Made by a program: the position numbers and the translations under genes. The notes under the pieces were generated by a model. The model searched no databases and was not told the DNA's origin. It saw only the letters and a list, made by a program, of their open reading frames with translations. A DNA stretch of 64,000 nt from Burkholderiales bacterium (GTDB lineage Bacteria; Pseudomonadota; Gammaproteobacteria; Burkholderiales; UBA11063): assembly GCA_035438765.1 (NCBI GenBank), contig DAORIZ010000002.1, positions 65,249 through 129,248 on the forward strand, read 5' to 3'. Of the stretch, positions 16,945-47,937 are shown in pieces; the stretch's first letter is position 1, and each line of letters opens with the position of its first letter.

Positions 16945-17968
16945 CTTTCCATGCTCGCCATCCTTTCTGAATCTGATAGATTTGTAAGCATGGTGAAATA
17001 GTCGTTAAACTTCTTTCCACAAGAAATTCGAAATGATATTTCTTTAATTCAGTACAAGAAACGCTACCTTCAACCTCAATAGATTTCATAATTTGTTGCA
17101 CGCCTTGTTCATTAGCTCCAATTTCCATAGCTGGAGCTATCTTCAGATTGGGGCTATAAAATGGAACATAATAATTTGATTGTGATGTACCTAATACAAT
17201 AGAGTTTTTAGGTAGAACAAATTTTGGAATAAGCTTATAGTTTTCTACTCCGAGAGGTAGATAGATGCATAAACATAGTACAATGTATTTATGAATTGGC
17301 GATATCCTTAATCTAACCTTAGCAATTGAGTATGAAATAATAATCACAAACAACGCACTCAGAATTGCGGCATAACGAATCATATTGAATAAGATGAAAT
17401 ATCCAAATAATACGCTTGTAGTTGTCAATAATGAGTTGCTGGTAAGGATAGCGTATAGTGATTTGATTATTGGTATAAGCTTAGCTCTGTGGATCACATT
17501 AACATTCAGATTATGCATATAGCCAATTACATCTTTAAGTTTGTTGTTATGTAAAAAAAGATAGATAATTGCTGCAATACTAGTTACAGGAGATAATAGC
17601 ATTATCAGGATTGTTTTATTTTCACCAATTGTTGCCAGGCGATTATGATTTAAAACAGGTAAATCTAAAACACTACTAAGCCATAAGCCATGAGAGTATG
17701 ATTGCCAAAAGCAAACAGAGATAATAAAATAGGAAAGACTAAGTAATATTTTAGCTTTTGGACGATTGAATATCGCAAATACTGCAGGTATATAAAAAAA
17801 GCTTAGCCAATAACATGGTATTAATAACATTCCTAAGGAAAACCATAATATTTTGAACTGCGTACTTGATTTAAAAGCTAACCCCCAAAGCACCCAACAA
17901 GTAAATATCATTTCTGGCCGAGCTAGAATTAAGCGTAACATCGCAAAATTATTTAATAATAGCATCAT
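16934..17968 (-). pseudogene. C-terminal ~344 codons of a polytopic membrane protein split by the transposon (N-terminal part at 47573-47937)
   Basis: The first 8 codons of ORF 16934..17992 (MRGWVKTP) are encoded by the transposon IR. The frame joins ...KYILTTLLMM from 47573-47937 across the ATCAT duplication. Confidence 0.8.
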
Positions 17969-18008
17969 GGGTGTTTTGACCCAACCCCTCAAAAGTGTAA
18001 AATTTTGA
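17969..18008. repeat. terminal IR of Tn3-family element (tnpA end)
   Basis: GGGTGTTTTGACCCAACCCCTCAAAAGTGTAAAATTTTGA, compared with the reverse complement of 23843-23882, GGGTATTTTTGCCCATCCCCTCAAAAGTGTAAAATCTTGA. Confidence 0.85.
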
Positions 18009-18010
18009 AA

Positions 18011-21000
18011 CTAATTCTCTTCAACCTCAATATTATCAAGGCTCATCAACTTGATAAGTTCATTAAACTCCATATTTAAAAATTCTTTGTTAAACTCATA
18101 ACGTCCATAAATATTAATATGTGCCCAAGCAATTGGTGAGATACGCTTGAGTTGTTCTACTTCATTAGTTTTGCCAGCCTTTTCCAATTTTATCAATAAA
18201 CTTGATAACAATCTTGCATTGTATAAAATAATATTGTTGGCTATAAATCTAGTACATTCATTGTAAATTTGTTGAGACATTTCAGAATGCACATTTAGTT
18301 TACCCTCATTCGCATAGGATATTGCTCGACGAAGTTTGTTATATGACTCACCACGGTTTAGAGCTTTTTGAATGTTTTGACGATAAGTAATGTCATCAAT
18401 ATAACGTAAAATATGAATACTGCGAATAATATTGTCTAATTCACATAATGCAGCTTTCGTTCGATTTCTACGTTTATGTGAACTTAACTTACTAATTATT
18501 ACGCCTTGAGTGGTTCCTTTGGTGGCTAACGACACCATAATTTTTTTGATGTTATCTTCTTCATCCAAAATAAGCTGTTTATTTACTTTCTTGGTTGGCT
18601 TTATCTTATATTTGCTGTATTCTTCTTTTGATTTAAAGCCATAAATATGCCCATCAATTTTACCAGCAGTATCCTTATATCTTGGTGCAAAAATATAATC
18701 AAAAAAGTATAAAATAATGAAATTTACAGCATTAGTTCCATGTGTATCAGTGGATAGAATATCTGGATCAATGTCTGAGGTGTTGTTAAACAGTAGGTCA
18801 AATATGAAGTTACCTTCATACTCATGAGCACCAAGTAATTTAACATTTGCCGCAATATGATTTACTACCAGTGTCAATGCTGACACTCCTTTATTAACGC
18901 CAAAGTATTTTGGTGAACATCTTGAATTAAAAGTGTCGAGGATAGTTTCAATTTTTGTTCCATCAGCACTGGCATGTATAAATTCTTCAAGAATATTATG
19001 ATGCTTACTAATCGGGAGCTTCGCAATCTCATTACTAACTTTATCATTAGCAGCCCGCAATGTTTCTAGTCTTATTCTACTATGTGTGGTAGATGCTAGC
19101 GAATTATAGCTTATATCAGATATTTTACCCATTTCCCCAAGACCGATGAACGTACCCATTGCAATTATGCTGGCTAAAAGACTGCTTGTTTGTAACTCTG
19201 ATTTATTATAACGATTAACCAGCGGTGTAAAACATTCCAAAAGAGAACAATGTTTATTATTCTCAATAATGATATCAGCAATAGCAATCCTCGGCAAATC
19301 GTTAAAAACATAATGATTGTCGGGCTCATCAAGCTTAGCATATGGCAAACTCCACGTATTTCCTAACTTTTTACCTGATAGTTTTATATGTGGGTTTTCA
19401 CCAGCATCAAAACGAGTATTCACTCGCTCAATCCAGTATTCAAGCTCTTTTTCTAATTCATCTAATGTTTCAGACAGTGGCGCAATGAGTTTTTTATAGC
19501 CAAGATTCTTGATAATATTTTCTTTATCTTGCCAACAAGCATCATCAACAAGGTCGTCATCAAAGTTTCTATATTTGTTGCTATCATTAACAAATATATG
19601 TCCAGCACCACAATTGTTGCTTAATTGTTGATACAACCAGAACTCATACTTATCGCAATTTATAACTTTTGTGTTGCTGACCTCATCACATAAATATGAA
19701 TATATTGATTTTGCGATAGCTGTTACTGGGAATTCGCTAGGTTTTACTTTCATTAATGTTCTATAAGTTGTTAGCTTTTGTTTTACAAAATCATAAGATT
19801 GCATGAGATTAGCCGAATTATTATTACCTTTAAAATCTAGACTTAGCAACAATGGTCGTAAGTTTTTCTTGATTCTGCCTGCTATCTGTACATAATAGCT
19901 CCATTCTAAGGCTGTAAGGTCAAATTTCTGATCATTTAAATATTCAGTAAACGCTTTAAATTCATCAAATGGTAATATTTTATAAGCAATATCCTTGATT
20001 TTACTAAATGCAAATTCATCATATTGATTATTATAGAACATTTCAAATATCGATGCTGCTTTCTTAAATTGAGCAGTTTGGATGATTTGTTGTTGTGCAA
20101 CAAATGTTTTAGCATACTTATCAGCTTCATGCAAATACCAATCAACATAATGAATAAAACAGTCAATTAGGTTGTCATTCATTTTTTTAAATCGATAGTG
20201 AATAAAACATATCAAATAAATTAATGCTTTACTCTTATTCATTCGTTTAAGCTTATAAACATTGTAGTAATCAACCAATGATGCATAATATTTAATGCTG
20301 GAATTAGAGATGTTCAGCTGTGGTAAAAATTCTTTGGATACATAATATAAATCTTGGATTTGTCTAAGTTTTACTATTTCAGCTTGCATTTCCTTATAAC
20401 CAAATGACTTCAACTCACGTTTCAAATAGGTAATTTCATGTAAACTATTATTAGCTTCAAGCAATTTCTCTAGCTTTTTATGTATATCTTGGTTGACCAG
20501 TTTATTTAAGAGCAGTGTTAATCTTTTTTCTTCAGCAGTAATTGCCCTACCAATAATATCCTGCAAAACCGTATAACCAGGGAGGATAACTCTATTTTTA
20601 TGTAAATATCGAACCACTTCTTTAAAAATGAATACTGGGTCATTATCAATACTGACCATCTCAGCCACAAATGCTTCAATTTGTTTCTTAATGCTTAAAT
20701 CACATGCTTTATAATCAAATAGCTTTAAGATTTTATATTCTAATTCAAGTCTGGTTGGGCGGCTAATGTTTAATTTGATTTTTTTCTTATATGATGGAAA
20801 ATACTTAGACTTTACAAACTGAAAATTAGCACTGATATTTTTGATTGTTTCTAAATTAAATAACTGTCTACTGGCTTTGAAATAACCAAGAAGTAAAATG
20901 AAGTATACTTTGCTCGCTGTTGAGCCGATACCATTAACTATATTTTCCTCATGGTTATCCAACGTGAGGTAATGTTGTTGCTCATCCGAGTCAAAGTTTT

Positions 21001-21061
21001 TCGGTTCGTAATAAAATTTAATTTCCGCATTATTTAGAATTGTTAAACGTTTTGTAGTCAT
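18011..21061 (-). CDS. tnpA: Tn3-family DDE transposase (1016 aa)
   Basis: Size, position next to the IR, and C-terminal motifs typical of the family (...LSTDTHGTNAVNF..., ...ALNRGESYNKLRRAI...). Confidence 0.9.
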   Translation of the reverse strand: MTTKRLTILNNAEIKFYYEPKNFDSDEQQHYLTLDNHEENIVNGIGSTASKVYFILLLGYFKASRQLFNLETIKNISANFQFVKSKYFPSYKKKIKLNISRPTRLELEYKILKLFDYKACDLSIKKQIEAFVAEMVSIDNDPVFIFKEVVRYLHKNRVILPGYTVLQDIIGRAITAEEKRLTLLLNKLVNQDIHKKLEKLLEANNSLHEITYLKRELKSFGYKEMQAEIVKLRQIQDLYYVSKEFLPQLNISNSSIKYYASLVDYYNVYKLKRMNKSKALIYLICFIHYRFKKMNDNLIDCFIHYVDWYLHEADKYAKTFVAQQQIIQTAQFKKAASIFEMFYNNQYDEFAFSKIKDIAYKILPFDEFKAFTEYLNDQKFDLTALEWSYYVQIAGRIKKNLRPLLLSLDFKGNNNSANLMQSYDFVKQKLTTYRTLMKVKPSEFPVTAIAKSIYSYLCDEVSNTKVINCDKYEFWLYQQLSNNCGAGHIFVNDSNKYRNFDDDLVDDACWQDKENIIKNLGYKKLIAPLSETLDELEKELEYWIERVNTRFDAGENPHIKLSGKKLGNTWSLPYAKLDEPDNHYVFNDLPRIAIADIIIENNKHCSLLECFTPLVNRYNKSELQTSSLLASIIAMGTFIGLGEMGKISDISYNSLASTTHSRIRLETLRAANDKVSNEIAKLPISKHHNILEEFIHASADGTKIETILDTFNSRCSPKYFGVNKGVSALTLVVNHIAANVKLLGAHEYEGNFIFDLLFNNTSDIDPDILSTDTHGTNAVNFIILYFFDYIFAPRYKDTAGKIDGHIYGFKSKEEYSKYKIKPTKKVNKQLILDEEDNIKKIMVSLATKGTTQGVIISKLSSHKRRNRTKAALCELDNIIRSIHILRYIDDITYRQNIQKALNRGESYNKLRRAISYANEGKLNVHSEMSQQIYNECTRFIANNIILYNARLLSSLLIKLEKAGKTNEVEQLKRISPIAWAHINIYGRYEFNKEFLNMEFNELIKLMSLDNIEVEEN

Positions 21062-21652
21062 TTATTTTTTTATGTATGATCCAATAATAACATTACGGTG
21101 ACGAAGATAGTTATAAAATGTGGATCTGGCAATTCCCAATTGGCTAATAATCTGACTAACTGTTAATTTGCCTTCTTTGTACAGGGTTTCAGCAGCACAT
21201 GCAATAGATTCATTTTTCTGTGACAATCCTTTTGGTTTGCCACCCAGCCTACCCCTAGCACGTGCAGCAGCCAATCCAGCAGTAGTTCTTTCCTGAATTA
21301 AATCACGCTCAAATTCAGCTAATGATGCAAAAATGTTAAATATTAATCTACCTTGTGGTGTGGTGGTATCAATGTGGTCATGTAAGCTCCTGAGTCCAAC
21401 GTCTTGTTGAATAAACTTGTTGACTAATTCTACCAAATGTTTTAAAGACCTACCAAGACGGTCTAGTTTCCAAATCACAACAATATCTCCAGGTCGCAAA
21501 TTATTAACTAATTCCTGTAATTTTGGTCTGTCGGCTTTAGTACCACTCATTACCTCAGCATAAATTTTTTCGCAACCATCTTGTTTTAGGGCATCGGTTT
21601 GTAAATCTAAATTCTGGTCTTTAGTTGATATTCTTGCATAGCCAATTTTCAT
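21062..21652 (-). CDS. tnpR: serine recombinase (resolvase)
   Basis: MKIGYARISTKDQNLDLQ catalytic-Ser motif, C-terminal HTH (LTVSQIISQLGIARSTFYNY). Lies directly upstream of tnpA and co-directional with it. Confidence 0.9.
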   Translation of the reverse strand: MKIGYARISTKDQNLDLQTDALKQDGCEKIYAEVMSGTKADRPKLQELVNNLRPGDIVVIWKLDRLGRSLKHLVELVNKFIQQDVGLRSLHDHIDTTTPQGRLIFNIFASLAEFERDLIQERTTAGLAAARARGRLGGKPKGLSQKNESIACAAETLYKEGKLTVSQIISQLGIARSTFYNYLRHRNVIIGSYIKK

Positions 21653-21780
21653 AGATACACCTTGTAAATGTTCGTTTTAATCAGTAAAAATATTATTACA
21701 GAACTTTGAAATAGAATACTAGTATTATAAACTGATTTTGAGGTATAATACACAATATTTTCAGTTTTAAAAATAGTCTT

Positions 21781-21798
21781 TAATAACGGACGTTATTA
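21781..21798. promoter_or_regulatory. res-like palindrome TAATAACG-GA-CGTTATTA (candidate crossover subsite)
   Basis: 18-bp dyad about 130 bp upstream of tnpR, at the distal end of the tnpR-cargo intergenic region. Confidence 0.5.
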
Positions 21799-21831
21799 CG
21801 AACTTTGTTTTTTCTGTCTAAGGTAAAAGAT

Positions 21832-22653
21832 ATGACTCCGTACAATGATATCAATGAAATTCTATCTTTCATGGCAAATAGCATTCAAGGCATTTTAGGT
21901 AATAATTTGATTGGCTTATATTTATGTGGTTCTTTATCTTATGGTGATTTTAACCCGAATAGTAGTGATATTGATTTAATCACAGTCTTAGCTCAACCAC
22001 TCAATAATTCTGAAACTAAATTAATAAAACAACTACATTTACAGATTGAGGATTTATCTAAAAAATGGAAAGATAGATTAGAATGCTCATATACACCAAT
22101 TAATATGTTTAAAAATATTTTACCACCTAAAGAACCTCGGCCATATTATGGCGGTGCAATTTTTTATGAAGAAGCTCCATATGGAAATGAATGGATTATA
22201 AATAATTATTTGTTATATCAACATGGTATTTCTCTTATAGGACCAGAATTCAAGAAATTAATTAAACCTATTGATCTCATCGAAGTGCAAAGAGCGTGTA
22301 TACAAGATTTATTTCAGGAGTGGGAACCAAAAATAAAAGACACAGAATGGCTAGACAATAGTCATTATCAATCCTATATTGTTATGAACCTATGCAGAAT
22401 TCTATATACTGTCTTACATGGAGTTACTGGCACAAAAAAGACTTCTGCTGAGTGGGTTAAAAAGGAATTTGGTTTGCCATGGAGTAATCTAATTGAACAT
22501 GCTGCACATTGGGAGTACGGTAAAAAATTACTCTTAAAAAGTGAAACTATTAATTTCATTAAATTTTGTGTGAACGAAATTAAACAAACAGAAACATATA
22601 AGCAGATGTTATCTAAAAACTCTGTGAGATCGTTGTGTACAGGAATTGAATAA
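21832..22653 (+). CDS. nucleotidyltransferase, aminoglycoside adenylyltransferase (ANT/AadA)-like
   Basis: LIGLYLCGSLSYGDFNPNSSDIDLITVL matches the GS-X10-DxD polymerase-beta-type NTase motif as found in AadA. About 273 aa from the ATG at 21832, which is preceded by AAGG. Confidence 0.55.
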   Translation: MTPYNDINEILSFMANSIQGILGNNLIGLYLCGSLSYGDFNPNSSDIDLITVLAQPLNNSETKLIKQLHLQIEDLSKKWKDRLECSYTPINMFKNILPPKEPRPYYGGAIFYEEAPYGNEWIINNYLLYQHGISLIGPEFKKLIKPIDLIEVQRACIQDLFQEWEPKIKDTEWLDNSHYQSYIVMNLCRILYTVLHGVTGTKKTSAEWVKKEFGLPWSNLIEHAAHWEYGKKLLLKSETINFIKFCVNEIKQTETYKQMLSKNSVRSLCTGIE

Positions 22654-22684
22654 AATTTAACTAATTACAAAAGATGACTTTAAT

Positions 22685-23839
22685 ATGAAAAAAATATTGG
22701 TAGTTGGTGCAGGTGTTGCTGGTTTAACTGTTTGCTACTGGTTAAAGAAGTTTGGATTCTTACCAGTTCTGATTGAAAAAAGTGATTTCTTAAGAACAGG
22801 TGGTCATGCTGTAGATATTCGCAGTCCAGCCGTAGATATAATTAAAAAGATGGATATCTATGAAAGCATATTTGAGATGCGTACTCAGCTAGAGAATAGC
22901 TACCATGTGGGTGCAGATAATAAAATTATAAAAGAATCACACGGAGAAGAATCTGGCTTTAATCATGGTGATGATGTCGAAATTGTTCGCGGTGATTTAT
23001 TATGGATATTGATGGACTCTATTAAAGATATTCCATGTCATTTTGGTCAAACTATTACTCAAATTAAACAACATGAAAAATATGTTGAAATTACCTTAAA
23101 GAGTGGTAAAACTGAATATTATGATTTAGTTATTGGTGCTGATGGGCTGTATTCATCTACTAGAGAAATGGCTTTTACCACAGAACAATTTGCTTCAGTT
23201 GACCTCAACACTTATATAGGAGTTTTTAGTATTCCAAATTATCTTAATTTAAGTAGATCTGAAATAGATTTTGAGTCAGATAACAAACTAATTTCTGTTA
23301 CATCATTTAATGATAGGTATATTGATAAAGCAATTGTCGCATTCTCATTTAGTTGTGACGAAAAAATGAACGATGTACGAGATCAAATGGAGCAAAAAAC
23401 CTTGTTGAGAAGCAAATTCATGAATATGGGTTGGGAAGTCAATAACTTACTTAAATTAATGGATGATAGCGATGACTTTTATTTTGACAGTGCCAAACAA
23501 ATACATATGACATCATGGACAGAAGGTAGAGTAGCTCTTATTGGTGATGCAGGATATTGCGCCGCACCGCTGGCTGGGCAGGGTACAAGTCAAGCAATTA
23601 TTGGGGCATATCTCTTAGCCGTGGAATTAAAACGTTTAGGAGGCAATCATTCTATTGCATTTGACCATTATAATAAATTATTACGACCTTATGTTGAAGC
23701 TAATCATGATCTTGCATTATGGGTAAGTGAAATGTATTTTTTGCTAGATGAGGTATCAGATACGGAAATAGAATTAAGAAATGATATGATTAAAGAAAAA
23801 TTACAAATAGCATCAAATGCAATCAAACTACCAGAATAA
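22685..23839 (+). CDS. class A FAD-dependent monooxygenase
   Basis: KILVVGAGVAGL (GxGxxG), DLVIGADGLYSSTR (DG motif) and ALIGDAGYCAAPLAGQGTSQAI (GD motif). 384 aa. Confidence 0.75.
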   Translation: MKKILVVGAGVAGLTVCYWLKKFGFLPVLIEKSDFLRTGGHAVDIRSPAVDIIKKMDIYESIFEMRTQLENSYHVGADNKIIKESHGEESGFNHGDDVEIVRGDLLWILMDSIKDIPCHFGQTITQIKQHEKYVEITLKSGKTEYYDLVIGADGLYSSTREMAFTTEQFASVDLNTYIGVFSIPNYLNLSRSEIDFESDNKLISVTSFNDRYIDKAIVAFSFSCDEKMNDVRDQMEQKTLLRSKFMNMGWEVNNLLKLMDDSDDFYFDSAKQIHMTSWTEGRVALIGDAGYCAAPLAGQGTSQAIIGAYLLAVELKRLGGNHSIAFDHYNKLLRPYVEANHDLALWVSEMYFLLDEVSDTEIELRNDMIKEKLQIASNAIKLPE

Positions 23840-23842
23840 GCC

Positions 23843-23882
23843 TCAAGATTTTACACTTTTGAGGGGATGGGCAAAAATACCC
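23843..23882. repeat. terminal IR of Tn3-family element (cargo end)
   Basis: Inverted copy of 17969-18008 (35/40 matches). Confidence 0.85.
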
Positions 23883-23978
23883 TACAGCTGGTTTGTTGAT
23901 GTGATACAATTCTTATCTATATGTGAGATTGTATAATTTTATATCAAATTATAGGTTAATACTTAACAGTGACTAAAA

Positions 23979-24593
23979 ATGGCTAAAATTATCGCTTATC
24001 TGCGTGCTTCTACAGATAAACAAGATTTAAATAATCAAAAACTAGAAATTCTGGAGTATGCACGCAAAAATCATCTTGAGATTAATGATTTTATTGAAAT
24101 TACTATTTCGAGCAGGAAAACCAGCAAGGATAGGCGTATTGATGAGATGGTATCAACTTTAAGTGATGCAGATACTCTTATTGTTACTGAATTAAGCCGG
24201 CTAGGTCGAAGCACAGCTGAAATCATTGGTCTAGTTAATGCGTTAATTAAGAAACAAGTTCGGGTTATAGCGATTAAACAAAGCCTCGACCTGAAGCAGC
24301 ACGACATGAATTCGAAAATCATTACCGCTCTATTCTCTTTATTTGCTGAACTTGAAAGGGATTTAATTAGTTTAAGAACAAAAGAAGCTTTGGCAAATAA
24401 AAAGTCTCAAGGTATTCAGCTAGGCAAACCTAAAGGTACGATTCAAAAAAGTAAATTTGATAAAGATCTTCCAAAAATCAAGGAGCTATTAACCCTAGGA
24501 TTATCCGTCAGAAAAATAGCTAATTTTTTAGGTTACTCAAATCACATAGGGTTAAATGAGTATATTAGAAAACGAAACATAATAATACGTTAA
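23979..24593 (+). CDS. tnpR: serine recombinase (resolvase of the second transposon)
   Basis: MAKIIAYLRASTDKQDLNNQ catalytic-Ser motif and C-terminal HTH. After the first transposon is deleted in silico, this gene is divergent from the 999-aa transposase. Confidence 0.8.
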   Translation: MAKIIAYLRASTDKQDLNNQKLEILEYARKNHLEINDFIEITISSRKTSKDRRIDEMVSTLSDADTLIVTELSRLGRSTAEIIGLVNALIKKQVRVIAIKQSLDLKQHDMNSKIITALFSLFAELERDLISLRTKEALANKKSQGIQLGKPKGTIQKSKFDKDLPKIKELLTLGLSVRKIANFLGYSNHIGLNEYIRKRNIIIR

Positions 24594-25061
24594 ACAGATT
24601 AGAAAAATAGGCACTACTTACTTTACCATATGAGTTGCAGTGAAAATTCAAATAAAATCATTTACTTTAAGTAAGAAATAAATACCATGAGCTCATCTTT
24701 AAATGTTATTCTTGTTATTGTCGGATCTTTAGTCCTAGGTATTTTTAGTTTTCCTGCGATAATTAATCGAGGCTTTAAAGGAGTACTGTTGTTTTGTACT
24801 GCCTGTTAAGTTGCTTATTATATTTGGGAGTGGCTGGGTCATCCTTTGATATCTATTTGTATATTATTTAGCATTTTGTGGATTGGATTTATTTTTATTA
24901 AGGGTTAACTAGTATTAATCAAGTGTTGTAATATGAAACAGTCAGTGTCTGATTATAGGTTAAATAATGTATAATATGTTTAAAATACAGTTAGCTGCTA
25001 AACAGATAAGTTATAATTAAACGGTGATTTATGTCTGTAATTTTATAATGGGGTAGTAATT

Positions 25062-27713: not shown

Positions 27714-27725
27714 AGTGTAGTAAGT

Positions 27726-27758
27726 GGAGATAGTTTTTAGACATCTAAAACTATCTCC
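27726..27758 (+). other. perfect 12-bp-stem hairpin abutting the start-codon repeat
   Basis: GGAGATAGTTTT-tagacatct-AAAACTATCTCC. There is no U-tract after it, so it is not a canonical terminator. Confidence 0.5.
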
Positions 27759-27780
27759 ATGAATGAATGAATGAATGAAT
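27759..27780 (+). repeat. tetranucleotide repeat (ATGA)5 containing the start codon
   Basis: ATGAATGAATGAATGAATGAAT. Of the five ATGs, only the one at 27771 opens the 1066-aa frame. Confidence 0.9.
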
Positions 27781-30971: not shown

Positions 30972-31041
30972 TGGCGATTATATTTTGAATCAAATTTAAC
31001 ACATGACTTGCTTAATAAGTCTATTAATAGCAATGGATAGC

Positions 31042-31935: not shown

Positions 31936-31973
31936 TACTCTTTGCAAAATTAACAAATTAGGAAAACAACAAA

Positions 31974-33962: not shown

Positions 33963-33982
33963 TAACTCCAAAAGGAATAGTT

Positions 33983-36792: not shown

Positions 36793-36823
36793 TGGTAGTA
36801 TTATTTTTCTAGGTATAGTCTTA

Positions 36824-37726: not shown

Positions 37727-37828
37727 CGACCAACTACCGTACTATCAGCGACCAACTACCGTACTATCAGCGACCAACTACCGTACTATCAGCGACCATA
37801 CTACCGTACTATCAGCGACCAAAAAACC
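37725..37828 (+). repeat. iteron array (origin of vegetative replication)
   Basis: AGCGACCAACTACCGTACTATC occurs three times (37725, 37747, 37769). A 23-bp variant AGCGACCATACTACCGTACTATC is at 37791, then a partial AGCGACC. An AT-rich stretch follows. Confidence 0.85.
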
Positions 37829-38274
37829 TATAAACGCCATATTTGCAGTGTTTACAGCTAACCCTAATCCTTTATTTAATCCTTTAAATAATCAGTAAAA
37901 ATCAACACTATTTTTTTACAACAGTGGTTTTATTGATTTTTACAATTAATCAAACCTTAATCCAATATGTTGATTTTTCGGGTGCATTGAGCACCACTCA
38001 GATCGATGCGCTTTGCGCAACTAAAAATAGCTCGCTACGCTCACAAAATCTTAATTTGCTATCTTTGTATGTAACGGTGCTAAAAAATGCAGCTATCGGC
38101 TTAAAAATGCGATTAGGTCGGTAATTAGGGCGCGAATAGCAGTTGTTTTTCTAAAACTATCCCGCGTATCAAGATTTTTCTTATCTAAAGGTTGGTTGAT
38201 AGGGGGTTGCACCCCCTCCCCATTCCGCTATCGCTTCATTACGTCGCCTATCGGCTCCTGCCCCGCTTATATCG

Positions 38275-38557
38275 CTACTCTAAAGACCAAATTTGAGTAT
38301 CGCAGTCTATTGATTGATTACTCCATTTAGCATAGGCTTGTTTGGTTTTGCAGCTAGAATTAATATATTTCAAGTACCCTGTAGCTTTGTTTGCCTGATA
38401 TTGCAGTTTGTAATTGTCCGTTAATTGTGCAGGAATTTTAAAATACCAATTTACACCCCAACCTGTCATAAATCCAAAAACTAAAGTTAGCAAGATAACC
38501 CAGAATTTTAGTTGCCAGCCAGTCCCATTTGAAAGTAGGCTATTGTTGTGTTCTATA
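38275..38557 (-). pseudogene. C-terminal ~93 codons of the split mob-operon gene (TM-containing)
   Basis: The first ~19 codons of ORF 38275..38616 are transposon/IR-encoded. The remainder, IEHNNSLLSNGTGWQLKFWVILLTLVFGFMTGWGV..., continues the 31377-31083 frame. Confidence 0.7.
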
Positions 38558-38598
38558 GGGGTGCCATTCCCAAACCGCAGATTTTTTTGAAATTTGCA
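38558..38598. repeat. 41-bp terminal IR of the second Tn3-family transposon (tnpA end)
   Basis: GGGGTGCCATTCCCAAACCGCAGATTTTTTTGAAATTTGCA, preceded by CTATA at 38553-38557. Confidence 0.85.
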
Positions 38599-38615
38599 TG
38601 AAAGCATTGCCATCA

Positions 38616-41615
38616 CTACCTTATATCCAATTCAATACTTTTAACAATCTCATCCAAATTAATTACCGTACTATCAGAAAACACTAATCTTCCCTGAAAA
38701 TGAATATGCTGCCAGGCTATTGGGGATATCTTTTTAAGCATTTTTAAAGCTTTCTGATTATTTTCTGCTTTGTACCTGTCATATAACTTGGATAAAATCA
38801 TTGAGTTGTAATGGATTATTACATTGGCTATTAATCGGCCACATTGATTGCTTATTTCTAATGCCCAATCAGTTTTGCCAATCAAATGCTTTTTGCCGTA
38901 AGCTTGAGCTATACCTGACCTCAATTGATGATAAGATTCCAACCGATTTTGTGAACGATGCGTGGTACTTATAATGTTTGGATCCAGCAGATATTGTAAT
39001 ATTTGGTTACTCCGAACCAGCTTGTCCAATTCGTATAGTGCTTCCCGGGTTTTGTGTTCCTGCTTGTAGGTACAGAGTTTTTTGATTAGAGAAGCCTGGC
39101 TAACTTCTCCGCTACCTAAGGTTGCGATTATTCGTTCCAGGTTTTCAGACTCAGATAAAATTAACTCACGATTGATTTCCCCACGTGGTTTAATATCGTA
39201 ATTATCGTATTTATCAAGCCACTTCTCACAATATACGTGCTGAAGCTGGTTATCAATATTGGTGAATCGTGGATATAATTCACCATCAAACCAATACATT
39301 ATAACTGAGTTTGCTTTATTCAGAATATGCATGTCCCCAGTTAAAATTTGTGGATTAATTTCACTGGAGTTGTTATACCAAATATCAAAAGCAAAATAGC
39401 TTTCATGGTCATTTGAGCCTAACAAATATGTTTGTAGCGGGACGTGGTTACATAACATTGAATATGCTACTACACCTTTACCTTTGCCAAAATATTTCTT
39501 GCCGTGTCGGGCTTTAATAGTTGGAGTGGCCATGTTAAACTTCTGCCCATCAACTGCTCCATGTAGCATTCCAAACTCGAATGAATAATGTGGAAAAATT
39601 GACATTTGAGCAATACTATTACTAATCATATCATTAGCTGCAATTAATGTTGCTAACCTAAGGCGGGCAAGGTAAGTGTCCTGCAAAGTATTATACGGGA
39701 TATTAGCGATATTTGCCATATTCGCGTTGCCGCTATTCATTCCCTGAGCCAGGATAGACGCTATCAAATGATCAAGATTAGCTTCTGACTTTACATAGCG
39801 AGGCTGGATATGACTAAAACTGTCGAGAAATCTGCATTCTTTATGCACCGTCTTTATGACATTTACAATATCCTGAAAGGGGAAATGCTCATAGAGTGAG
39901 TGTTCAATTTGGTCTTGTTTGGGTAAGGCTGAGCGTTTTAGATGCAGTTTTTTGGTTTTTTCGTCATAATATAGGTGTTTTAGCTTGCCCTGACGATATA
40001 GCCTATGAAATTTCTTCCATAGTTGGTTAGATTTAGCTAGCAGTTCATCAAGTTGTTTAGATATGGGCTTTTTAGCTGTTTCAGCTGTGAGTTTTTGCCA
40101 AATAGCATCCTTCTTATCTTTTGTTACCAGTTCGTCGCTTAAATTGCGATATAGCAAAGAATCTCTAAAATAAGTGTTCCCAGAGATTATTGAATCCTGT
40201 ATTTTACGGTATACCCAATATTCGTAACGGTTCAGGATAAGGACTGTCTGGTCATTGACTTTCTTGGTTAAATAAGGTAGTAATCGCGATGGCAAATTTG
40301 GAAAATCAGTAATATTATGTTTGATCTTTAGGTACTTAAGCCAGTTAATTGCTTCTAACAGTTCACCTTTGGCGCTGGAGAAATCGAGGTTTTGAATCAA
40401 ACAGCGAAGGTTGGATTTTAGATAGGTTGCTACTTTATCTACACTTTCCCAATAAACTATAGCCTCCACGGCGGATGAGCTCTCAGTGATGTATTTGAGA
40501 ATTGCCTGCTTATCTAAAATGTCAAACGCCTTTTGACGCACATCTCCAAAACTCAACTCATCCGAAAGGCTTTCATCCACATAAAATTTAACCAATTGCT
40601 TCATATAGTTCATACTTGCATTTTGTTCAATTGCATTAGCCGCAATTGCCTGCTTATTTATTTCACCTACTTTACCCTGAGCATGGCGCTGATGATAACC
40701 AAAAGCAATGATTAAATTATCAATTATCTGTTGGAAGCGGTGATGTATATAGCATAAGATATATAGATAGCTTTGCTCGACTTTTATATGTTGACGCAAG
40801 TCATAGGCTGAATAATAATGGATGAATGTGCCATAATTATTGATATTGTTTTTTGAAATAGATAACTGTGGTAGTATTCTTTTAGCAATCAGGTAAATCG
40901 GGTGCATTATATTTAACTTCCTGCATTCCTGCAGCATCATGCGTGGTTTAAAATCTTTAGCATCCTGCTTTATTGCAGCTAATTCACTAAGTGTGCTCTC
41001 ATTGCTTACTAGTGCCAGAATTAACTTACTTTCCTCTGAAGTAATTTGATGAATAAGTAAATTACTAATTCTGAATTTCTCGGAGTTAATTGCTGTAATT
41101 ACAACTTCTTGAAGCGTTGTATATTGTGGGCGAATAATTTTTTGCTGTTTGAGGTATGTTAATAGCTCCAAAGCAATAAATTGCTGATTAACGTTAAGCT
41201 TTACCAATTCATTAGCTTTATTCAGCAAAGGGTCACTAAACTGAGATTCCCACATTCGAAAACCATATAATTCAGCTATGGCTGTACATTGAGTGTAATA
41301 TTCGTAATCTGTGATTTTACTTAGCTTAATTTTTTGGTCATAAAAGTATTGCTCCAAAATAAATGAAACAGTTTTATTGCTCACATCATTCCAGGCAACC
41401 TTAAAGAATAGGGTTACTGCTTTAAAATACGCCAGTTGCAAACAGCAATAAACCCGGGCACTCCATGAGCCACGGCTCATTACTATATCCAGCTCCTTTT
41501 GAGTTAAGGTAAGATACTCGTAATGCTGTTCTTCATTGAAATCTGGGGTTTCATAATAAGCAGCGCGTTCAGCTTGAGTTAATATTTCTAAATGCTCATT
41601 AGGTTTATGCTTCAT
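38616..41615 (-). CDS. tnpA: Tn3-family DDE transposase (999 aa)
   Basis: Collinear with the 1016-aa TnpA, with the same N-terminal ...ETPDFNEEQHYEYLTL... pattern. C-terminal ...NRLESYHQLRSGI... motif. Confidence 0.85.
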   Translation of the reverse strand: MKHKPNEHLEILTQAERAAYYETPDFNEEQHYEYLTLTQKELDIVMSRGSWSARVYCCLQLAYFKAVTLFFKVAWNDVSNKTVSFILEQYFYDQKIKLSKITDYEYYTQCTAIAELYGFRMWESQFSDPLLNKANELVKLNVNQQFIALELLTYLKQQKIIRPQYTTLQEVVITAINSEKFRISNLLIHQITSEESKLILALVSNESTLSELAAIKQDAKDFKPRMMLQECRKLNIMHPIYLIAKRILPQLSISKNNINNYGTFIHYYSAYDLRQHIKVEQSYLYILCYIHHRFQQIIDNLIIAFGYHQRHAQGKVGEINKQAIAANAIEQNASMNYMKQLVKFYVDESLSDELSFGDVRQKAFDILDKQAILKYITESSSAVEAIVYWESVDKVATYLKSNLRCLIQNLDFSSAKGELLEAINWLKYLKIKHNITDFPNLPSRLLPYLTKKVNDQTVLILNRYEYWVYRKIQDSIISGNTYFRDSLLYRNLSDELVTKDKKDAIWQKLTAETAKKPISKQLDELLAKSNQLWKKFHRLYRQGKLKHLYYDEKTKKLHLKRSALPKQDQIEHSLYEHFPFQDIVNVIKTVHKECRFLDSFSHIQPRYVKSEANLDHLIASILAQGMNSGNANMANIANIPYNTLQDTYLARLRLATLIAANDMISNSIAQMSIFPHYSFEFGMLHGAVDGQKFNMATPTIKARHGKKYFGKGKGVVAYSMLCNHVPLQTYLLGSNDHESYFAFDIWYNNSSEINPQILTGDMHILNKANSVIMYWFDGELYPRFTNIDNQLQHVYCEKWLDKYDNYDIKPRGEINRELILSESENLERIIATLGSGEVSQASLIKKLCTYKQEHKTREALYELDKLVRSNQILQYLLDPNIISTTHRSQNRLESYHQLRSGIAQAYGKKHLIGKTDWALEISNQCGRLIANVIIHYNSMILSKLYDRYKAENNQKALKMLKKISPIAWQHIHFQGRLVFSDSTVINLDEIVKSIELDIR

Positions 41616-41635
41616 ATCATCTGTTAATGTATAAT

Positions 41636-41653
41636 TAATAACGATCGTTATTA
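41636..41653. promoter_or_regulatory. res-like palindrome TAATAACG-AT-CGTTATTA of the second transposon
   Basis: Perfect 18-bp dyad directly abutting the TACAG duplication. The half-sites are identical to those at 21781-21798. Confidence 0.5.
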
Positions 41654-41700
41654 TACAGGGGTGTTTTGACCCAACCCCTCAAAAGTGTAAAATTTTGAAA

Positions 41701-44700
41701 CTAATTCTCTTCAACCTCAATATTATCAAGGCTCATCAACTTGATAAGTTCATTAAACTCCATATTTAAAAATTCTTTGTTAAACTCATAACGTCCATAA
41801 ATATTAATATGTGCCCAAGCAATTGGTGAGATACGCTTGAGTTGTTCTACTTCATTAGTTTTGCCAGCCTTTTCCAATTTTATCAATAAACTTGATAACA
41901 ATCTTGCATTGTATAAAATAATATTGTTGGCTATAAATCTAGTACATTCATTGTAAATTTGTTGAGACATTTCAGAATGCACATTTAGTTTACCCTCATT
42001 CGCATAGGATATTGCTCGACGAAGTTTGTTATATGACTCACCACGGTTTAGAGCTTTTTGAATGTTTTGACGATAAGTAATGTCATCAATATAACGTAAA
42101 ATATGAATACTGCGAATAATATTGTCTAATTCACATAATGCAGCTTTCGTTCGATTTCTACGTTTATGTGAACTTAACTTACTAATTATTACGCCTTGAG
42201 TGGTTCCTTTGGTGGCTAACGACACCATAATTTTTTTGATGTTATCTTCTTCATCCAAAATAAGCTGTTTATTTACTTTCTTGGTTGGCTTTATCTTATA
42301 TTTGCTGTATTCTTCTTTTGATTTAAAGCCATAAATATGCCCATCAATTTTACCAGCAGTATCCTTATATCTTGGTGCAAAAATATAATCAAAAAAGTAT
42401 AAAATAATGAAATTTACAGCATTAGTTCCATGTGTATCAGTGGATAGAATATCTGGATCAATGTCTGAGGTGTTGTTAAACAGTAGGTCAAATATGAAGT
42501 TACCTTCATACTCATGAGCACCAAGTAATTTAACATTTGCCGCAATATGATTTACTACCAGTGTCAATGCTGACACTCCTTTATTAACGCCAAAGTATTT
42601 TGGTGAACATCTTGAATTAAAAGTGTCGAGGATAGTTTCAATTTTTGTTCCATCAGCACTGGCATGTATAAATTCTTCAAGAATATTATGATGCTTACTA
42701 ATCGGGAGCTTCGCAATCTCATTACTAACTTTATCATTAGCAGCCCGCAATGTTTCTAGTCTTATTCTACTATGTGTGGTAGATGCTAGCGAATTATAGC
42801 TTATATCAGATATTTTACCCATTTCCCCAAGACCGATGAACGTACCCATTGCAATTATGCTGGCTAAAAGACTGCTTGTTTGTAACTCTGATTTATTATA
42901 ACGATTAACCAGCGGTGTAAAACATTCCAAAAGAGAACAATGTTTATTATTCTCAATAATGATATCAGCAATAGCAATCCTCGGCAAATCGTTAAAAACA
43001 TAATGATTGTCGGGCTCATCAAGCTTAGCATATGGCAAACTCCACGTATTTCCTAACTTTTTACCTGATAGTTTTATATGTGGGTTTTCACCAGCATCAA
43101 AACGAGTATTCACTCGCTCAATCCAGTATTCAAGCTCTTTTTCTAATTCATCTAATGTTTCAGACAGTGGCGCAATGAGTTTTTTATAGCCAAGATTCTT
43201 GATAATATTTTCTTTATCTTGCCAACAAGCATCATCAACAAGGTCGTCATCAAAGTTTCTATATTTGTTGCTATCATTAACAAATATATGTCCAGCACCA
43301 CAATTGTTGCTTAATTGTTGATACAACCAGAACTCATACTTATCGCAATTTATAACTTTTGTGTTGCTGACCTCATCACATAAATATGAATATATTGATT
43401 TTGCGATAGCTGTTACTGGGAATTCGCTAGGTTTTACTTTCATTAATGTTCTATAAGTTGTTAGCTTTTGTTTTACAAAATCATAAGATTGCATGAGATT
43501 AGCCGAATTATTATTACCTTTAAAATCTAGACTTAGCAACAATGGTCGTAAGTTTTTCTTGATTCTGCCTGCTATCTGTACATAATAGCTCCATTCTAAG
43601 GCTGTAAGGTCAAATTTCTGATCATTTAAATATTCAGTAAACGCTTTAAATTCATCAAATGGTAATATTTTATAAGCAATATCCTTGATTTTACTAAATG
43701 CAAATTCATCATATTGATTATTATAGAACATTTCAAATATCGATGCTGCTTTCTTAAATTGAGCAGTTTGGATGATTTGTTGTTGTGCAACAAATGTTTT
43801 AGCATACTTATCAGCTTCATGCAAATACCAATCAACATAATGAATAAAACAGTCAATTAGGTTGTCATTCATTTTTTTAAATCGATAGTGAATAAAACAT
43901 ATCAAATAAATTAATGCTTTACTCTTATTCATTCGTTTAAGCTTATAAACATTGTAGTAATCAACCAATGATGCATAATATTTAATGCTGGAATTAGAGA
44001 TGTTCAGCTGTGGTAAAAATTCTTTGGATACATAATATAAATCTTGGATTTGTCTAAGTTTTACTATTTCAGCTTGCATTTCCTTATAACCAAATGACTT
44101 CAACTCACGTTTCAAATAGGTAATTTCATGTAAACTATTATTAGCTTCAAGCAATTTCTCTAGCTTTTTATGTATATCTTGGTTGACCAGTTTATTTAAG
44201 AGCAGTGTTAATCTTTTTTCTTCAGCAGTAATTGCCCTACCAATAATATCCTGCAAAACCGTATAACCAGGGAGGATAACTCTATTTTTATGTAAATATC
44301 GAACCACTTCTTTAAAAATGAATACTGGGTCATTATCAATACTGACCATCTCAGCCACAAATGCTTCAATTTGTTTCTTAATGCTTAAATCACATGCTTT
44401 ATAATCAAATAGCTTTAAGATTTTATATTCTAATTCAAGTCTGGTTGGGCGGCTAATGTTTAATTTGATTTTTTTCTTATATGATGGAAAATACTTAGAC
44501 TTTACAAACTGAAAATTAGCACTGATATTTTTGATTGTTTCTAAATTAAATAACTGTCTACTGGCTTTGAAATAACCAAGAAGTAAAATGAAGTATACTT
44601 TGCTCGCTGTTGAGCCGATACCATTAACTATATTTTCCTCATGGTTATCCAACGTGAGGTAATGTTGTTGCTCATCCGAGTCAAAGTTTTTCGGTTCGTA

Positions 44701-44751
44701 ATAAAATTTAATTTCCGCATTATTTAGAATTGTTAAACGTTTTGTAGTCAT
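41701..44751 (-). CDS. tnpA: Tn3-family DDE transposase (copy 2)
   Basis: Translation identical to 18011..21061. Confidence 0.9.
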   Translation of the reverse strand: MTTKRLTILNNAEIKFYYEPKNFDSDEQQHYLTLDNHEENIVNGIGSTASKVYFILLLGYFKASRQLFNLETIKNISANFQFVKSKYFPSYKKKIKLNISRPTRLELEYKILKLFDYKACDLSIKKQIEAFVAEMVSIDNDPVFIFKEVVRYLHKNRVILPGYTVLQDIIGRAITAEEKRLTLLLNKLVNQDIHKKLEKLLEANNSLHEITYLKRELKSFGYKEMQAEIVKLRQIQDLYYVSKEFLPQLNISNSSIKYYASLVDYYNVYKLKRMNKSKALIYLICFIHYRFKKMNDNLIDCFIHYVDWYLHEADKYAKTFVAQQQIIQTAQFKKAASIFEMFYNNQYDEFAFSKIKDIAYKILPFDEFKAFTEYLNDQKFDLTALEWSYYVQIAGRIKKNLRPLLLSLDFKGNNNSANLMQSYDFVKQKLTTYRTLMKVKPSEFPVTAIAKSIYSYLCDEVSNTKVINCDKYEFWLYQQLSNNCGAGHIFVNDSNKYRNFDDDLVDDACWQDKENIIKNLGYKKLIAPLSETLDELEKELEYWIERVNTRFDAGENPHIKLSGKKLGNTWSLPYAKLDEPDNHYVFNDLPRIAIADIIIENNKHCSLLECFTPLVNRYNKSELQTSSLLASIIAMGTFIGLGEMGKISDISYNSLASTTHSRIRLETLRAANDKVSNEIAKLPISKHHNILEEFIHASADGTKIETILDTFNSRCSPKYFGVNKGVSALTLVVNHIAANVKLLGAHEYEGNFIFDLLFNNTSDIDPDILSTDTHGTNAVNFIILYFFDYIFAPRYKDTAGKIDGHIYGFKSKEEYSKYKIKPTKKVNKQLILDEEDNIKKIMVSLATKGTTQGVIISKLSSHKRRNRTKAALCELDNIIRSIHILRYIDDITYRQNIQKALNRGESYNKLRRAISYANEGKLNVHSEMSQQIYNECTRFIANNIILYNARLLSSLLIKLEKAGKTNEVEQLKRISPIAWAHINIYGRYEFNKEFLNMEFNELIKLMSLDNIEVEEN

Positions 44752-45342
44752 TTATTTTTTTATGTATGATCCAATAATAACATTACGGTGACGAAGATAG
44801 TTATAAAATGTGGATCTGGCAATTCCCAATTGGCTAATAATCTGACTAACTGTTAATTTGCCTTCTTTGTACAGGGTTTCAGCAGCACATGCAATAGATT
44901 CATTTTTCTGTGACAATCCTTTTGGTTTGCCACCCAGCCTACCCCTAGCACGTGCAGCAGCCAATCCAGCAGTAGTTCTTTCCTGAATTAAATCACGCTC
45001 AAATTCAGCTAATGATGCAAAAATGTTAAATATTAATCTACCTTGTGGTGTGGTGGTATCAATGTGGTCATGTAAGCTCCTGAGTCCAACGTCTTGTTGA
45101 ATAAACTTGTTGACTAATTCTACCAAATGTTTTAAAGACCTACCAAGACGGTCTAGTTTCCAAATCACAACAATATCTCCAGGTCGCAAATTATTAACTA
45201 ATTCCTGTAATTTTGGTCTGTCGGCTTTAGTACCACTCATTACCTCAGCATAAATTTTTTCGCAACCATCTTGTTTTAGGGCATCGGTTTGTAAATCTAA
45301 ATTCTGGTCTTTAGTTGATATTCTTGCATAGCCAATTTTCAT
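44752..45342 (-). CDS. tnpR: serine recombinase / resolvase (copy 2)
   Basis: Translation identical to 21062..21652. Confidence 0.9.
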   Translation of the reverse strand: MKIGYARISTKDQNLDLQTDALKQDGCEKIYAEVMSGTKADRPKLQELVNNLRPGDIVVIWKLDRLGRSLKHLVELVNKFIQQDVGLRSLHDHIDTTTPQGRLIFNIFASLAEFERDLIQERTTAGLAAARARGRLGGKPKGLSQKNESIACAAETLYKEGKLTVSQIISQLGIARSTFYNYLRHRNVIIGSYIKK

Positions 45343-45521
45343 AGATACACCTTGTAAATGTTCGTTTTAATCAGTAAAAATATTATTACAGAACTTTGAA
45401 ATAGAATACTAGTATTATAAACTGATTTTGAGGTATAATACACAATATTTTCAGTTTTAAAAATAGTCTTTAATAACGGACGTTATTACGAACTTTGTTT
45501 TTTCTGTCTAAGGTAAAAGAT

Positions 45522-46343
45522 ATGACTCCGTACAATGATATCAATGAAATTCTATCTTTCATGGCAAATAGCATTCAAGGCATTTTAGGTAATAATTTGA
45601 TTGGCTTATATTTATGTGGTTCTTTATCTTATGGTGATTTTAACCCGAATAGTAGTGATATTGATTTAATCACAGTCTTAGCTCAACCACTCAATAATTC
45701 TGAAACTAAATTAATAAAACAACTACATTTACAGATTGAGGATTTATCTAAAAAATGGAAAGATAGATTAGAATGCTCATATACACCAATTAATATGTTT
45801 AAAAATATTTTACCACCTAAAGAACCTCGGCCATATTATGGCGGTGCAATTTTTTATGAAGAAGCTCCATATGGAAATGAATGGATTATAAATAATTATT
45901 TGTTATATCAACATGGTATTTCTCTTATAGGACCAGAATTCAAGAAATTAATTAAACCTATTGATCTCATCGAAGTGCAAAGAGCGTGTATACAAGATTT
46001 ATTTCAGGAGTGGGAACCAAAAATAAAAGACACAGAATGGCTAGACAATAGTCATTATCAATCCTATATTGTTATGAACCTATGCAGAATTCTATATACT
46101 GTCTTACATGGAGTTACTGGCACAAAAAAGACTTCTGCTGAGTGGGTTAAAAAGGAATTTGGTTTGCCATGGAGTAATCTAATTGAACATGCTGCACATT
46201 GGGAGTACGGTAAAAAATTACTCTTAAAAAGTGAAACTATTAATTTCATTAAATTTTGTGTGAACGAAATTAAACAAACAGAAACATATAAGCAGATGTT
46301 ATCTAAAAACTCTGTGAGATCGTTGTGTACAGGAATTGAATAA
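45522..46343 (+). CDS. ANT/AadA-like nucleotidyltransferase (copy 2)
   Basis: Translation identical to 21832..22653. Confidence 0.55.
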   Translation: MTPYNDINEILSFMANSIQGILGNNLIGLYLCGSLSYGDFNPNSSDIDLITVLAQPLNNSETKLIKQLHLQIEDLSKKWKDRLECSYTPINMFKNILPPKEPRPYYGGAIFYEEAPYGNEWIINNYLLYQHGISLIGPEFKKLIKPIDLIEVQRACIQDLFQEWEPKIKDTEWLDNSHYQSYIVMNLCRILYTVLHGVTGTKKTSAEWVKKEFGLPWSNLIEHAAHWEYGKKLLLKSETINFIKFCVNEIKQTETYKQMLSKNSVRSLCTGIE

Positions 46344-46374
46344 AATTTAACTAATTACAAAAGATGACTTTAAT

Positions 46375-47529
46375 ATGAAAAAAATATTGGTAGTTGGTGC
46401 AGGTGTTGCTGGTTTAACTGTTTGCTACTGGTTAAAGAAGTTTGGATTCTTACCAGTTCTGATTGAAAAAAGTGATTTCTTAAGAACAGGTGGTCATGCT
46501 GTAGATATTCGCAGTCCAGCCGTAGATATAATTAAAAAGATGGATATCTATGAAAGCATATTTGAGATGCGTACTCAGCTAGAGAATAGCTACCATGTGG
46601 GTGCAGATAATAAAATTATAAAAGAATCACACGGAGAAGAATCTGGCTTTAATCATGGTGATGATGTCGAAATTGTTCGCGGTGATTTATTATGGATATT
46701 GATGGACTCTATTAAAGATATTCCATGTCATTTTGGTCAAACTATTACTCAAATTAAACAACATGAAAAATATGTTGAAATTACCTTAAAGAGTGGTAAA
46801 ACTGAATATTATGATTTAGTTATTGGTGCTGATGGGCTGTATTCATCTACTAGAGAAATGGCTTTTACCACAGAACAATTTGCTTCAGTTGACCTCAACA
46901 CTTATATAGGAGTTTTTAGTATTCCAAATTATCTTAATTTAAGTAGATCTGAAATAGATTTTGAGTCAGATAACAAACTAATTTCTGTTACATCATTTAA
47001 TGATAGGTATATTGATAAAGCAATTGTCGCATTCTCATTTAGTTGTGACGAAAAAATGAACGATGTACGAGATCAAATGGAGCAAAAAACCTTGTTGAGA
47101 AGCAAATTCATGAATATGGGTTGGGAAGTCAATAACTTACTTAAATTAATGGATGATAGCGATGACTTTTATTTTGACAGTGCCAAACAAATACATATGA
47201 CATCATGGACAGAAGGTAGAGTAGCTCTTATTGGTGATGCAGGATATTGCGCCGCACCGCTGGCTGGGCAGGGTACAAGTCAAGCAATTATTGGGGCATA
47301 TCTCTTAGCCGTGGAATTAAAACGTTTAGGAGGCAATCATTCTATTGCATTTGACCATTATAATAAATTATTACGACCTTATGTTGAAGCTAATCATGAT
47401 CTTGCATTATGGGTAAGTGAAATGTATTTTTTGCTAGATGAGGTATCAGATACGGAAATAGAATTAAGAAATGATATGATTAAAGAAAAATTACAAATAG
47501 CATCAAATGCAATCAAACTACCAGAATAA
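46375..47529 (+). CDS. class A FAD-dependent monooxygenase (copy 2)
   Basis: Translation identical to 22685..23839. Confidence 0.75.
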   Translation: MKKILVVGAGVAGLTVCYWLKKFGFLPVLIEKSDFLRTGGHAVDIRSPAVDIIKKMDIYESIFEMRTQLENSYHVGADNKIIKESHGEESGFNHGDDVEIVRGDLLWILMDSIKDIPCHFGQTITQIKQHEKYVEITLKSGKTEYYDLVIGADGLYSSTREMAFTTEQFASVDLNTYIGVFSIPNYLNLSRSEIDFESDNKLISVTSFNDRYIDKAIVAFSFSCDEKMNDVRDQMEQKTLLRSKFMNMGWEVNNLLKLMDDSDDFYFDSAKQIHMTSWTEGRVALIGDAGYCAAPLAGQGTSQAIIGAYLLAVELKRLGGNHSIAFDHYNKLLRPYVEANHDLALWVSEMYFLLDEVSDTEIELRNDMIKEKLQIASNAIKLPE

Positions 47530-47572
47530 GCCTCAAGATTTTACACTTTTGAGGGGATGGGCAAAAATACCC

Positions 47573-47937
47573 ATCATGAGTAATGTAGTAAGTATATATT
47601 TGTGCTTGTGAGTATCTAATATCTTCAAGACAATCATTAATACAGGTATAACAAATCCTATCATGCAGATAAACTGTACAAAGTGAGCAGTTATCACTCT
47701 GGAACCAATAACGTTTAGCCAATGCAATATAATGTCAAACAATATGTATTGATTGTACTTGGCCATTAGAGGAGCATGAATATATAAATTAGCATAGTTA
47801 TAGCGATAATCACCAGCAACAATGTCTCGAAGTAAATCATCCTGTGGTAATGGTAAATTTAGGAAAAATACTAGAAATACCATTACTAAGTATAGAACCA
47901 AAAGCCAAAATGTATCATCTTTGATAGTTTTATTCAT
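47573..47937 (-). pseudogene. N-terminal ~122 codons of the split polytopic membrane protein
   Basis: ORF 47533..47937 ends with 12 IR-encoded residues (GIFAHPLKSVKS). Its start overlaps the stop of the GT2 gene (ATGA). Confidence 0.8.

Follow-up and report, generated by a model that had tools for sequence, protein, structure and literature searches.

The question raised by this locus is whether two plasmids that are joined in a metagenome assembly were also joined in the cell. The stretch of DNA analysed here (“the window”, the 64,000 nucleotides at positions 65,249 to 129,248 of contig DAORIZ010000002.1 in the Burkholderiales bacterium assembly GCA_035438765.1) contains two copies of a 5.9-kb element, here called Tn, which enclose a plasmid Y and are themselves enclosed by a large plasmid X (its left and right flanks are referred to as XL and XR), so that the order of the parts is X-Tn-Y-Tn-X. 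The first-pass annotation of the window read this order as an unresolved cointegrate, generated by replicative transposition of a Tn3-family element. The analysis described below favours a different reading, to which a probability of roughly 55% is attached: the join in the fused contig is unsupported, and X and Y, each with its own single copy of the element (X::Tn and Y::Tn), are separate plasmids in the same population.

The two copies of Tn occupy 17969..23882 and 41659..47572, both on the minus strand and hence in direct orientation. Each is 5,914 bp long, and the offset of 23,690 bp that had been reported for the two identical copies is confirmed by nucleotide alignment, which gives 100% identity (0 mismatches) over 5,914 bp, with the identity ending exactly at the copy boundaries. 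An exact repeat of 5.9 kb excludes a chance origin. Direct reading of the flanks likewise confirms that the 5-bp sequences bordering the copies are swapped: ATCAT, which belongs to plasmid X, lies to the left of copy 1 (17964..17968) and to the right of copy 2 (47573..47577), and TACAG, which belongs to plasmid Y, lies on the inner side of copy 1 (23883..23887) and of copy 2 (41654..41658), giving the order ATCAT-Tn-TACAG ... TACAG-Tn-ATCAT. Both pairs are true target-site duplications, as had been proposed, because both empty sites exist elsewhere: an exact 80-mer containing a single ATCAT is present in NCBI JACCDG011515840.1, and an exact 80-mer containing a single TACAG is present in SRR13225480. 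The outer duplication had also been said to split one membrane-protein gene in frame. The C-terminal part of this gene for a polytopic protein of X lies at 16934..17968 and the N-terminal part, of 121 codons, at 47573..47937, both on the minus strand; removal of Tn-Y-Tn together with one ATCAT restores an open frame of 464 amino acids with at least six hydrophobic segments, and the intact 464-residue gene is likewise called in JACCDG011515840.1, which bears out the claim. In the window, a 134-residue open reading frame at 47533-47937 runs from the split gene into the end of Tn.

With two identical direct copies joining two replicons and with reciprocal flanks, the window has the form of a cointegrate, and the order of its parts is indeed the one that replicative transposition predicts. 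What cannot be retained from the first-pass annotation is the use of this order as a diagnostic of transposition, since X::Tn and Y::Tn, recombined by one crossover, give an identical sequence, and both of these molecules exist alone. The fused form has no junction that is unique to it: all four of its junctions are common to the separate plasmids, so that the join across the 5.9-kb repeat rests on the assembler's choice. Three histories (separate plasmids joined during assembly, recombination between resident copies, and transposition caught as a cointegrate) therefore yield one and the same sequence, and the sequence alone cannot tell them apart.

The separate molecules have been found in other assemblies; the relatives of Tn, X and Y discussed here are metagenome contigs throughout. 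X::Tn with ATCAT on both sides is present on single contigs in three samples (ERZ27248707, SRR14234081 and ERZ926034), the contig in ERZ27248707 being 116 kb long and bearing a MEGAHIT-style name (k141). Y::Tn is present in JGI 3300012020 as a closed circle with TACAG on both sides, on a contig of 23,729 bp, which is the sum of 23,690 bp, one extra 22-bp iteron and a 17-bp overlap of the ends. Both of the resolved products that had been predicted, X with one copy and a circle of 23,690 bp, thus occur outside the window. The identical Tn is also carried by a third plasmid, Z, a small TrfA/MobA plasmid with a chaperone-usher operon found in several Japanese (DRR) samples, in which the duplication is AACCA. 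The 5-bp duplications of Tn are accordingly known at three independent sites (ATCAT, TACAG and AACCA), and at least three plasmids, in samples from several unrelated sequencing projects, carry it without a single nucleotide difference; activated sludge was the material sampled in one or more of these projects. Judged from these contigs, Tn is an active element, since empty sites and single insertions at several sites exist, and a resolved single copy is the usual form of its insertions. The earlier remark that persistence of the fused state is unexpected takes for granted that the fused form predominates; elsewhere, single-copy insertions with matched flanks are the common state.

As the sequences show, Tn has inserted independently into several plasmids, with a 5-bp duplication each time, its targets including X at ATCAT within the membrane-protein gene and Y at TACAG within the res region of a second transposon, element 2, which is described below. 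Each insertion would have passed through a cointegrate that was resolved by TnpR at res, as is expected from knowledge of the family. In the history that goes with separate plasmids, the shared 5.9-kb repeat would make Y a loop on X in the assembly graph, X-Tn-Y-Tn-X would be one legal walk through this graph, and the fused form would be at most a minor, transient species. The window comes from a contig of a third-party metagenome assembly, and X::Tn (about 116.2 kb) and Y::Tn (23.7 kb) together approximate the 139,583 bp of the likely source contig; the exact transposase and the exact monooxygenase of Tn each occur twice in one Burkholderiales record (HRG61650.1/HRG61666.1 and HRG61653.1/HRG61669.1, respectively). 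Path-extending de Bruijn assemblers such as SPAdes pass a simple loop once when the coverages of the loop and its flanks are similar. In JGI 3300014059 the assembly graph branches at both ends of Tn and the parts are left partly unjoined: contig_25 starts with 77 bp of the left end of Tn and continues through Y and Tn into XL, with 100% identity to window positions 8011-41735, and contig_285 is an XR contig that stops 80 bp into the right end of Tn. The one paper retrieved for the JGI sample identifiers concerns Patescibacteria MAGs from activated sludge (PMC11809585).

Several considerations weigh against this reading. The XL-Tn-Y linkage has been produced in two different assemblies, since the alleles of the window at 48720 and 48773 differ from those in JGI 3300014059, which makes the two assemblies independent. 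If a coverage-based loop resolver was used, the single passage through the loop implies a Y:X coverage near 1:1, a ratio which fits a true cointegrate and does not so obviously fit a small iteron plasmid beside a large plasmid. Accurate long reads, if they were used for the assembly, would make the join real. Finally, a single copy of Tn with hybrid flanks in Logan DRR379928_129 shows that Tn generates rearranged replicons. Logan contigs are taken as built without repeat resolution.

A real fused molecule is for these purposes a tentative alternative, with less than even odds, which are divided evenly between a later crossover and a primary cointegrate, so that either history taken singly is unlikely. 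In the first of these, one crossover between resident X::Tn and Y::Tn, mediated by RecA or by intermolecular action of TnpR at res, would produce a secondary fusion of about 140 kb. In this molecule the mobilizable plasmid could travel with the conjugative one, and the fused and separate forms would be in equilibrium. Such a crossover predicts exactly the flank pattern observed, and because X::Tn is found at the same ATCAT site across several unrelated sequencing projects, a fresh transposition into that site is less parsimonious than recombination between copies already resident; the XL-Tn-Y linkage in two assemblies and the hybrid flanks in DRR379928_129 are also consistent with it. However, a proficient resolvase removes Tn3-family fusions quickly, so that the intact TnpR and candidate res should split the fusion fast, and a minority species is not favoured by the consensus of an assembly.

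The second history, to which the same low weight is given, is that of a primary cointegrate formed by replicative transposition from Y::Tn into an empty X and either captured while still unresolved or incapable of resolution. In its favour, the topology agrees with it, as do both target duplications, the empty X exists (JACCDG011515840.1), all Tn3-family insertions pass through such an intermediate, and it may be speculated that Tn, which lies 5 bp from the copy of its own core palindrome in element 2, suffers a disturbance of synapsis. The widespread X::Tn would nevertheless have to descend from this cointegrate, unless the same 5 bp were hit twice; moreover, the identical Tn is resolved in X, Y and Z, so that no defect of resolution is visible, and cointegrates of resolvase-proficient Tn3-family elements are short-lived. 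The objection from target immunity raised in the first-pass annotation is irrelevant, because a cointegrate acquires its second copy through replication and not by insertion into an immune target. Last, a 140-kb fusion that is both real and long-lived, in which resolution is impaired by the nesting of Tn in the res region of element 2 and TAATAACGNNCGTTATTA serves as a decoy or competing site beside one of the copies, is highly improbable, and no visible resolution defect was found when one was sought in the sequences of TnpR and the candidate res.

The resolution system on which these arguments depend is formed by tnpR, which in copy 1 lies at 21062-21652 on the minus strand, directly upstream of tnpA and on the same strand, and by the 152-bp non-coding stretch at 21653-21804, the candidate res. 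The predicted TnpR, of 196 amino acids, is by sequence an intact small serine recombinase, with the catalytic Ser9 and the DRLGR motif present, and it is nearer to the Gin invertase (1e-48) than to the resolvases of gamma-delta or Tn3 (about 1e-27 to 1e-29). Within the candidate res, the palindrome TAATAACGGACGTTATTA at 21781-21798 (45471-45488 in copy 2) is the candidate crossover core; the palindromic motif occurs 3 times in the window, where 0.05 occurrences are expected. In related transposons the stretch is about 75% identical, and the 23-bp block around the palindrome, the only long block of its kind, is invariant. Position, palindrome and conservation together make this block a good candidate for the crossover site of res. 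Of the earlier statement that tnpR and a res-like region are intact in both copies, the part concerning TnpR is supported by its motifs, while res has the standing of a candidate by sequence. Resolution as a whole appears functional, to judge from the motifs of TnpR, the invariant core of the candidate res and the single copies with matched flanks at ATCAT, TACAG and AACCA.

The remaining features of Tn support its assignment to the Tn3 family, which the first-pass annotation had made. Its terminal inverted repeats (in copy 1, the left at 17969-18006 and the right at 23845-23882) are imperfect, matching at 33 of 38 positions, with ends GGGTGTTTTGACCC... and GGGTATTTTTGCCC...; repeats of about 38 bp that start with GGGG or GGGT are characteristic of the family. 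The gene tnpA (18011-21061, minus strand) encodes a predicted transposase of 1,016 amino acids, with a score of 623.8 bits against NF033527, where the cut-off is 500, and with Pfam matches to DDE_Tnp_Tn3 (1.9e-108) and DUF4158. Together with the 5-bp target duplications, the profile score and the repeats place the element securely in the family. No entry in PLSDB exceeds 42% identity to the transposase, a PLSDB megablast with Tn, XL and Y gave no match, and the exact pattern of the left inverted repeat was found 0 times in GTDB genomes and on one 4.4-kb contig in the metagenome collection. As far as these comparisons reach, Tn is a previously undescribed Tn3-family transposon.

Two passenger genes on the plus strand, divergently oriented from tnpR and tnpA, complete the element. 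The first (21805-22653; 45495-46343 in copy 2) encodes an ANT-like nucleotidyltransferase of 282 amino acids, and the second (22685-23839; 46375-47529 in copy 2) a flavin-dependent (FAD) monooxygenase of 384 amino acids. The latter can be aligned over its full length with the structurally solved tetracycline destructases Tet(51), Tet(55), Tet(50) and Tet(56) (E values from 1e-119 to 1e-131) and shares 51-53% identity with Tet(48) and Tet(51), of which Tet(51) is the closest; its score of 532.7 bits on the NCBIfam model tet_destruct, NF033476, is slightly under the cut-off of 550. The tetracycline destructases are clearly the nearest family of this predicted enzyme.

Further contigs carry Tn or its close relatives in other settings. 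In Logan DRR379928_129, a single Tn has unmatched flanks, with ATCAT followed by XR on the right and, on the left, ATTTA beside a different F-type tra region (TraG_N, TraH, TraF; flank W); these hybrid flanks look like the result of a Tn-mediated deletion or of recombination between two copies. In ERZ650238, NODE_178, equivalent to window positions 42663-44875, has a 97%-identical variant of Tn at the same site in X; divergence of about 7% affects tnpA and the 3' end of tnpR, and the remainder is identical. An origin of this variant by exchange at res was considered and rejected, because the divergent block ends within the 3' part of tnpR (44875); the breakpoint inside tnpR reflects ordinary homologous recombination with a related transposon, and the variant is a mosaic. 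A 92%-identical Tn end lies directly beside clpX, clpP and polysaccharide genes in SSGX01000043.1 (L051), an 80-kb contig of 34% GC from a metagenome-assembled genome (MAG) assigned to Neisseriales. Related elements are present in MAGs labelled Neisseria or Neisseriales, and the transposase of element 2 shares 90% identity or more with one encoded in the chromosome of Aquella oligotrophica. The hosts of X and Y are probably relatives of Aquella (Neisseriales/Burkholderiales) from sewage or activated sludge.

Plasmid X is an F-type conjugative plasmid of about 110 kb, with F-type transfer genes and a coupling protein. At 48720 and 48773 the window reads C and G, in contrast to the T and T of nearly every other XR contig, one sample (L038) being intermediate; the two positions lie at the 5' end of, and just upstream of, a GT2 glycosyltransferase gene, whose called start varies among assemblies such that the product has between 246 and 276 amino acids.

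Plasmid Y without Tn (23883..41658) comprises 17,776 bp, of which 7,475 bp are backbone and 10,301 bp are element 2. The backbone (31083..38557) encodes a MobA/MobL relaxase (31974-33473; 3e-41), an N6 DNA methyltransferase (33983-35860) with its specificity subunit (35857-36792), and TrfA (36824-37726; Pfam 7.6e-12), followed by four 22-bp iterons (37725-37821). The profile matches, and the closed circle found elsewhere, uphold the earlier view that the enclosed 17.8 kb is a replicon of its own with TrfA, iterons and a relaxase. For the candidate oriT of Y, a brief look gave one weak inverted repeat at 31795-31859. The number of iterons downstream of trfA varies, with four in the window and in JGI 3300014059 and five in the closed circle of JGI 3300012020.

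Element 2 is a complete Tn3-family transposon of 10,301 bp, with perfect 41-bp terminal repeats and a 5-bp duplication of its own, CTATA. Its right part (23883..31082, plus strand) ends in the terminal repeat at 31042-31082, followed by CTATA at 31083-31087, and its left part (38558..41658, minus strand) starts with the terminal repeat at 38558-38598, preceded by CTATA at 38553-38557. The left part contains tnpA2 (38616-41615, minus strand), which encodes 999 amino acids, scores 533.3 bits on NF033527 and has a product 31% identical to the TnpA of Tn; the right part contains a serine recombinase gene divergent from tnpA2 (23979-24593, 204 amino acids) and genes for two large choice-of-anchor-D proteins of the surface (25062-27713 and 27771-30971). 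In circular Y, Tn occupies the 134-bp gap between tnpA2 and the recombinase gene, which is the res region of element 2. The insertion lies 5 bp beyond a res-like palindrome, TAATAACGATCGTTATTA, at 41636-41653, and thereby parts the core of element 2 from the rest of its res region. This palindrome has the 16 specified bases of the palindrome of Tn itself, a common core written as TAATAACGNNCGTTATTA, although Tn and element 2 are unrelated transposons whose recombinases are only 32% identical.

A preference of Tn for res cores was considered, and as a general rule such targeting was rejected, because the palindrome is absent near the insertions in X, Z, W, ERZ650243 NODE_1122 (L016) and L051; insertion at a res core is found at 1 of at least six Tn sites. 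In NODE_1122 the insertion of Tn truncates the 3' end of another serine-resolvase gene, which brings to two, out of about seven insertion sites known, those situated no more than about 0.5 kb from a resolvase locus.

The significance of the locus depends in part on whether the join is physical. If it is, a mobilizable resistance plasmid hitch-hikes on a conjugative plasmid by way of a Tn3-family cointegrate in an uncultured host from wastewater; the spread of resistance by fusion is a known route, which would here be extended to a new lineage. If, in addition, resolution were impaired, a mobilizable plasmid would have become a stable part of a conjugative one in an uncultured bacterium from sewage. 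Independent of the join are a new transposon with tetracycline-destructase-like and ANT-like genes on several plasmids, and a fully reconstructed history of insertion, from empty sites through single insertions to a nested transposon. The window is also a cautionary case, in that a repeat common to two plasmids can yield a cointegrate-like contig.

Comparison with known systems separates what is familiar in this arrangement from what is new. The cointegrates of Tn3 and gamma-delta (the Shapiro model) have the same two direct copies joining donor and target, the same new 5-bp duplication on the outside with the old duplication of the donor on the inside, and a serine resolvase gene with an adjacent res; the difference is that the state seen in the window is known from metagenome contigs alone, where a crossover or an assembly walk looks the same. 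Fusions in which a pair of direct copies of a mobile element links a conjugative plasmid to another plasmid, with the target duplication split between the junctions, are also known for pS13F with Tn6952 (PMC8193513) and for IS26 cointegrates (PMC4471558). Tn3-like fusions in clinical isolates have been confirmed by junction PCR or closed genomes, and the Tn6952 unit that fused pS13F is without an intact resolution system (PMC8193513), whereas tnpR and the candidate res of the window look intact and its fusion is known from assembly alone. Tn has the res-tnpR-tnpA order of Tn21 and Tn501, with the genes co-directional and the palindromic core farthest from tnpR, but differs from them in its distant TnpA, its Gin-like TnpR and its passenger genes. 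It resembles the “res hunters” Tn5053 and Tn402 in one insertion within the res of another transposon, 5 bp from the palindromic core, but uses a different transposition machinery and has only one of at least six sites at a res core. The predicted 384-residue monooxygenase is like the tetracycline destructases Tet(47)-Tet(56) from end to end, and differs from them in its score, which is under the curated cut-off, and in being borne by a transposon on plasmids. The textbook arrangement of a Tn3 cointegrate was thus known already, as were plasmid fusions in isolates; what is new is Tn itself, its tetracycline-destructase-like cargo, its nesting in the res of another transposon and the lineage of its host.

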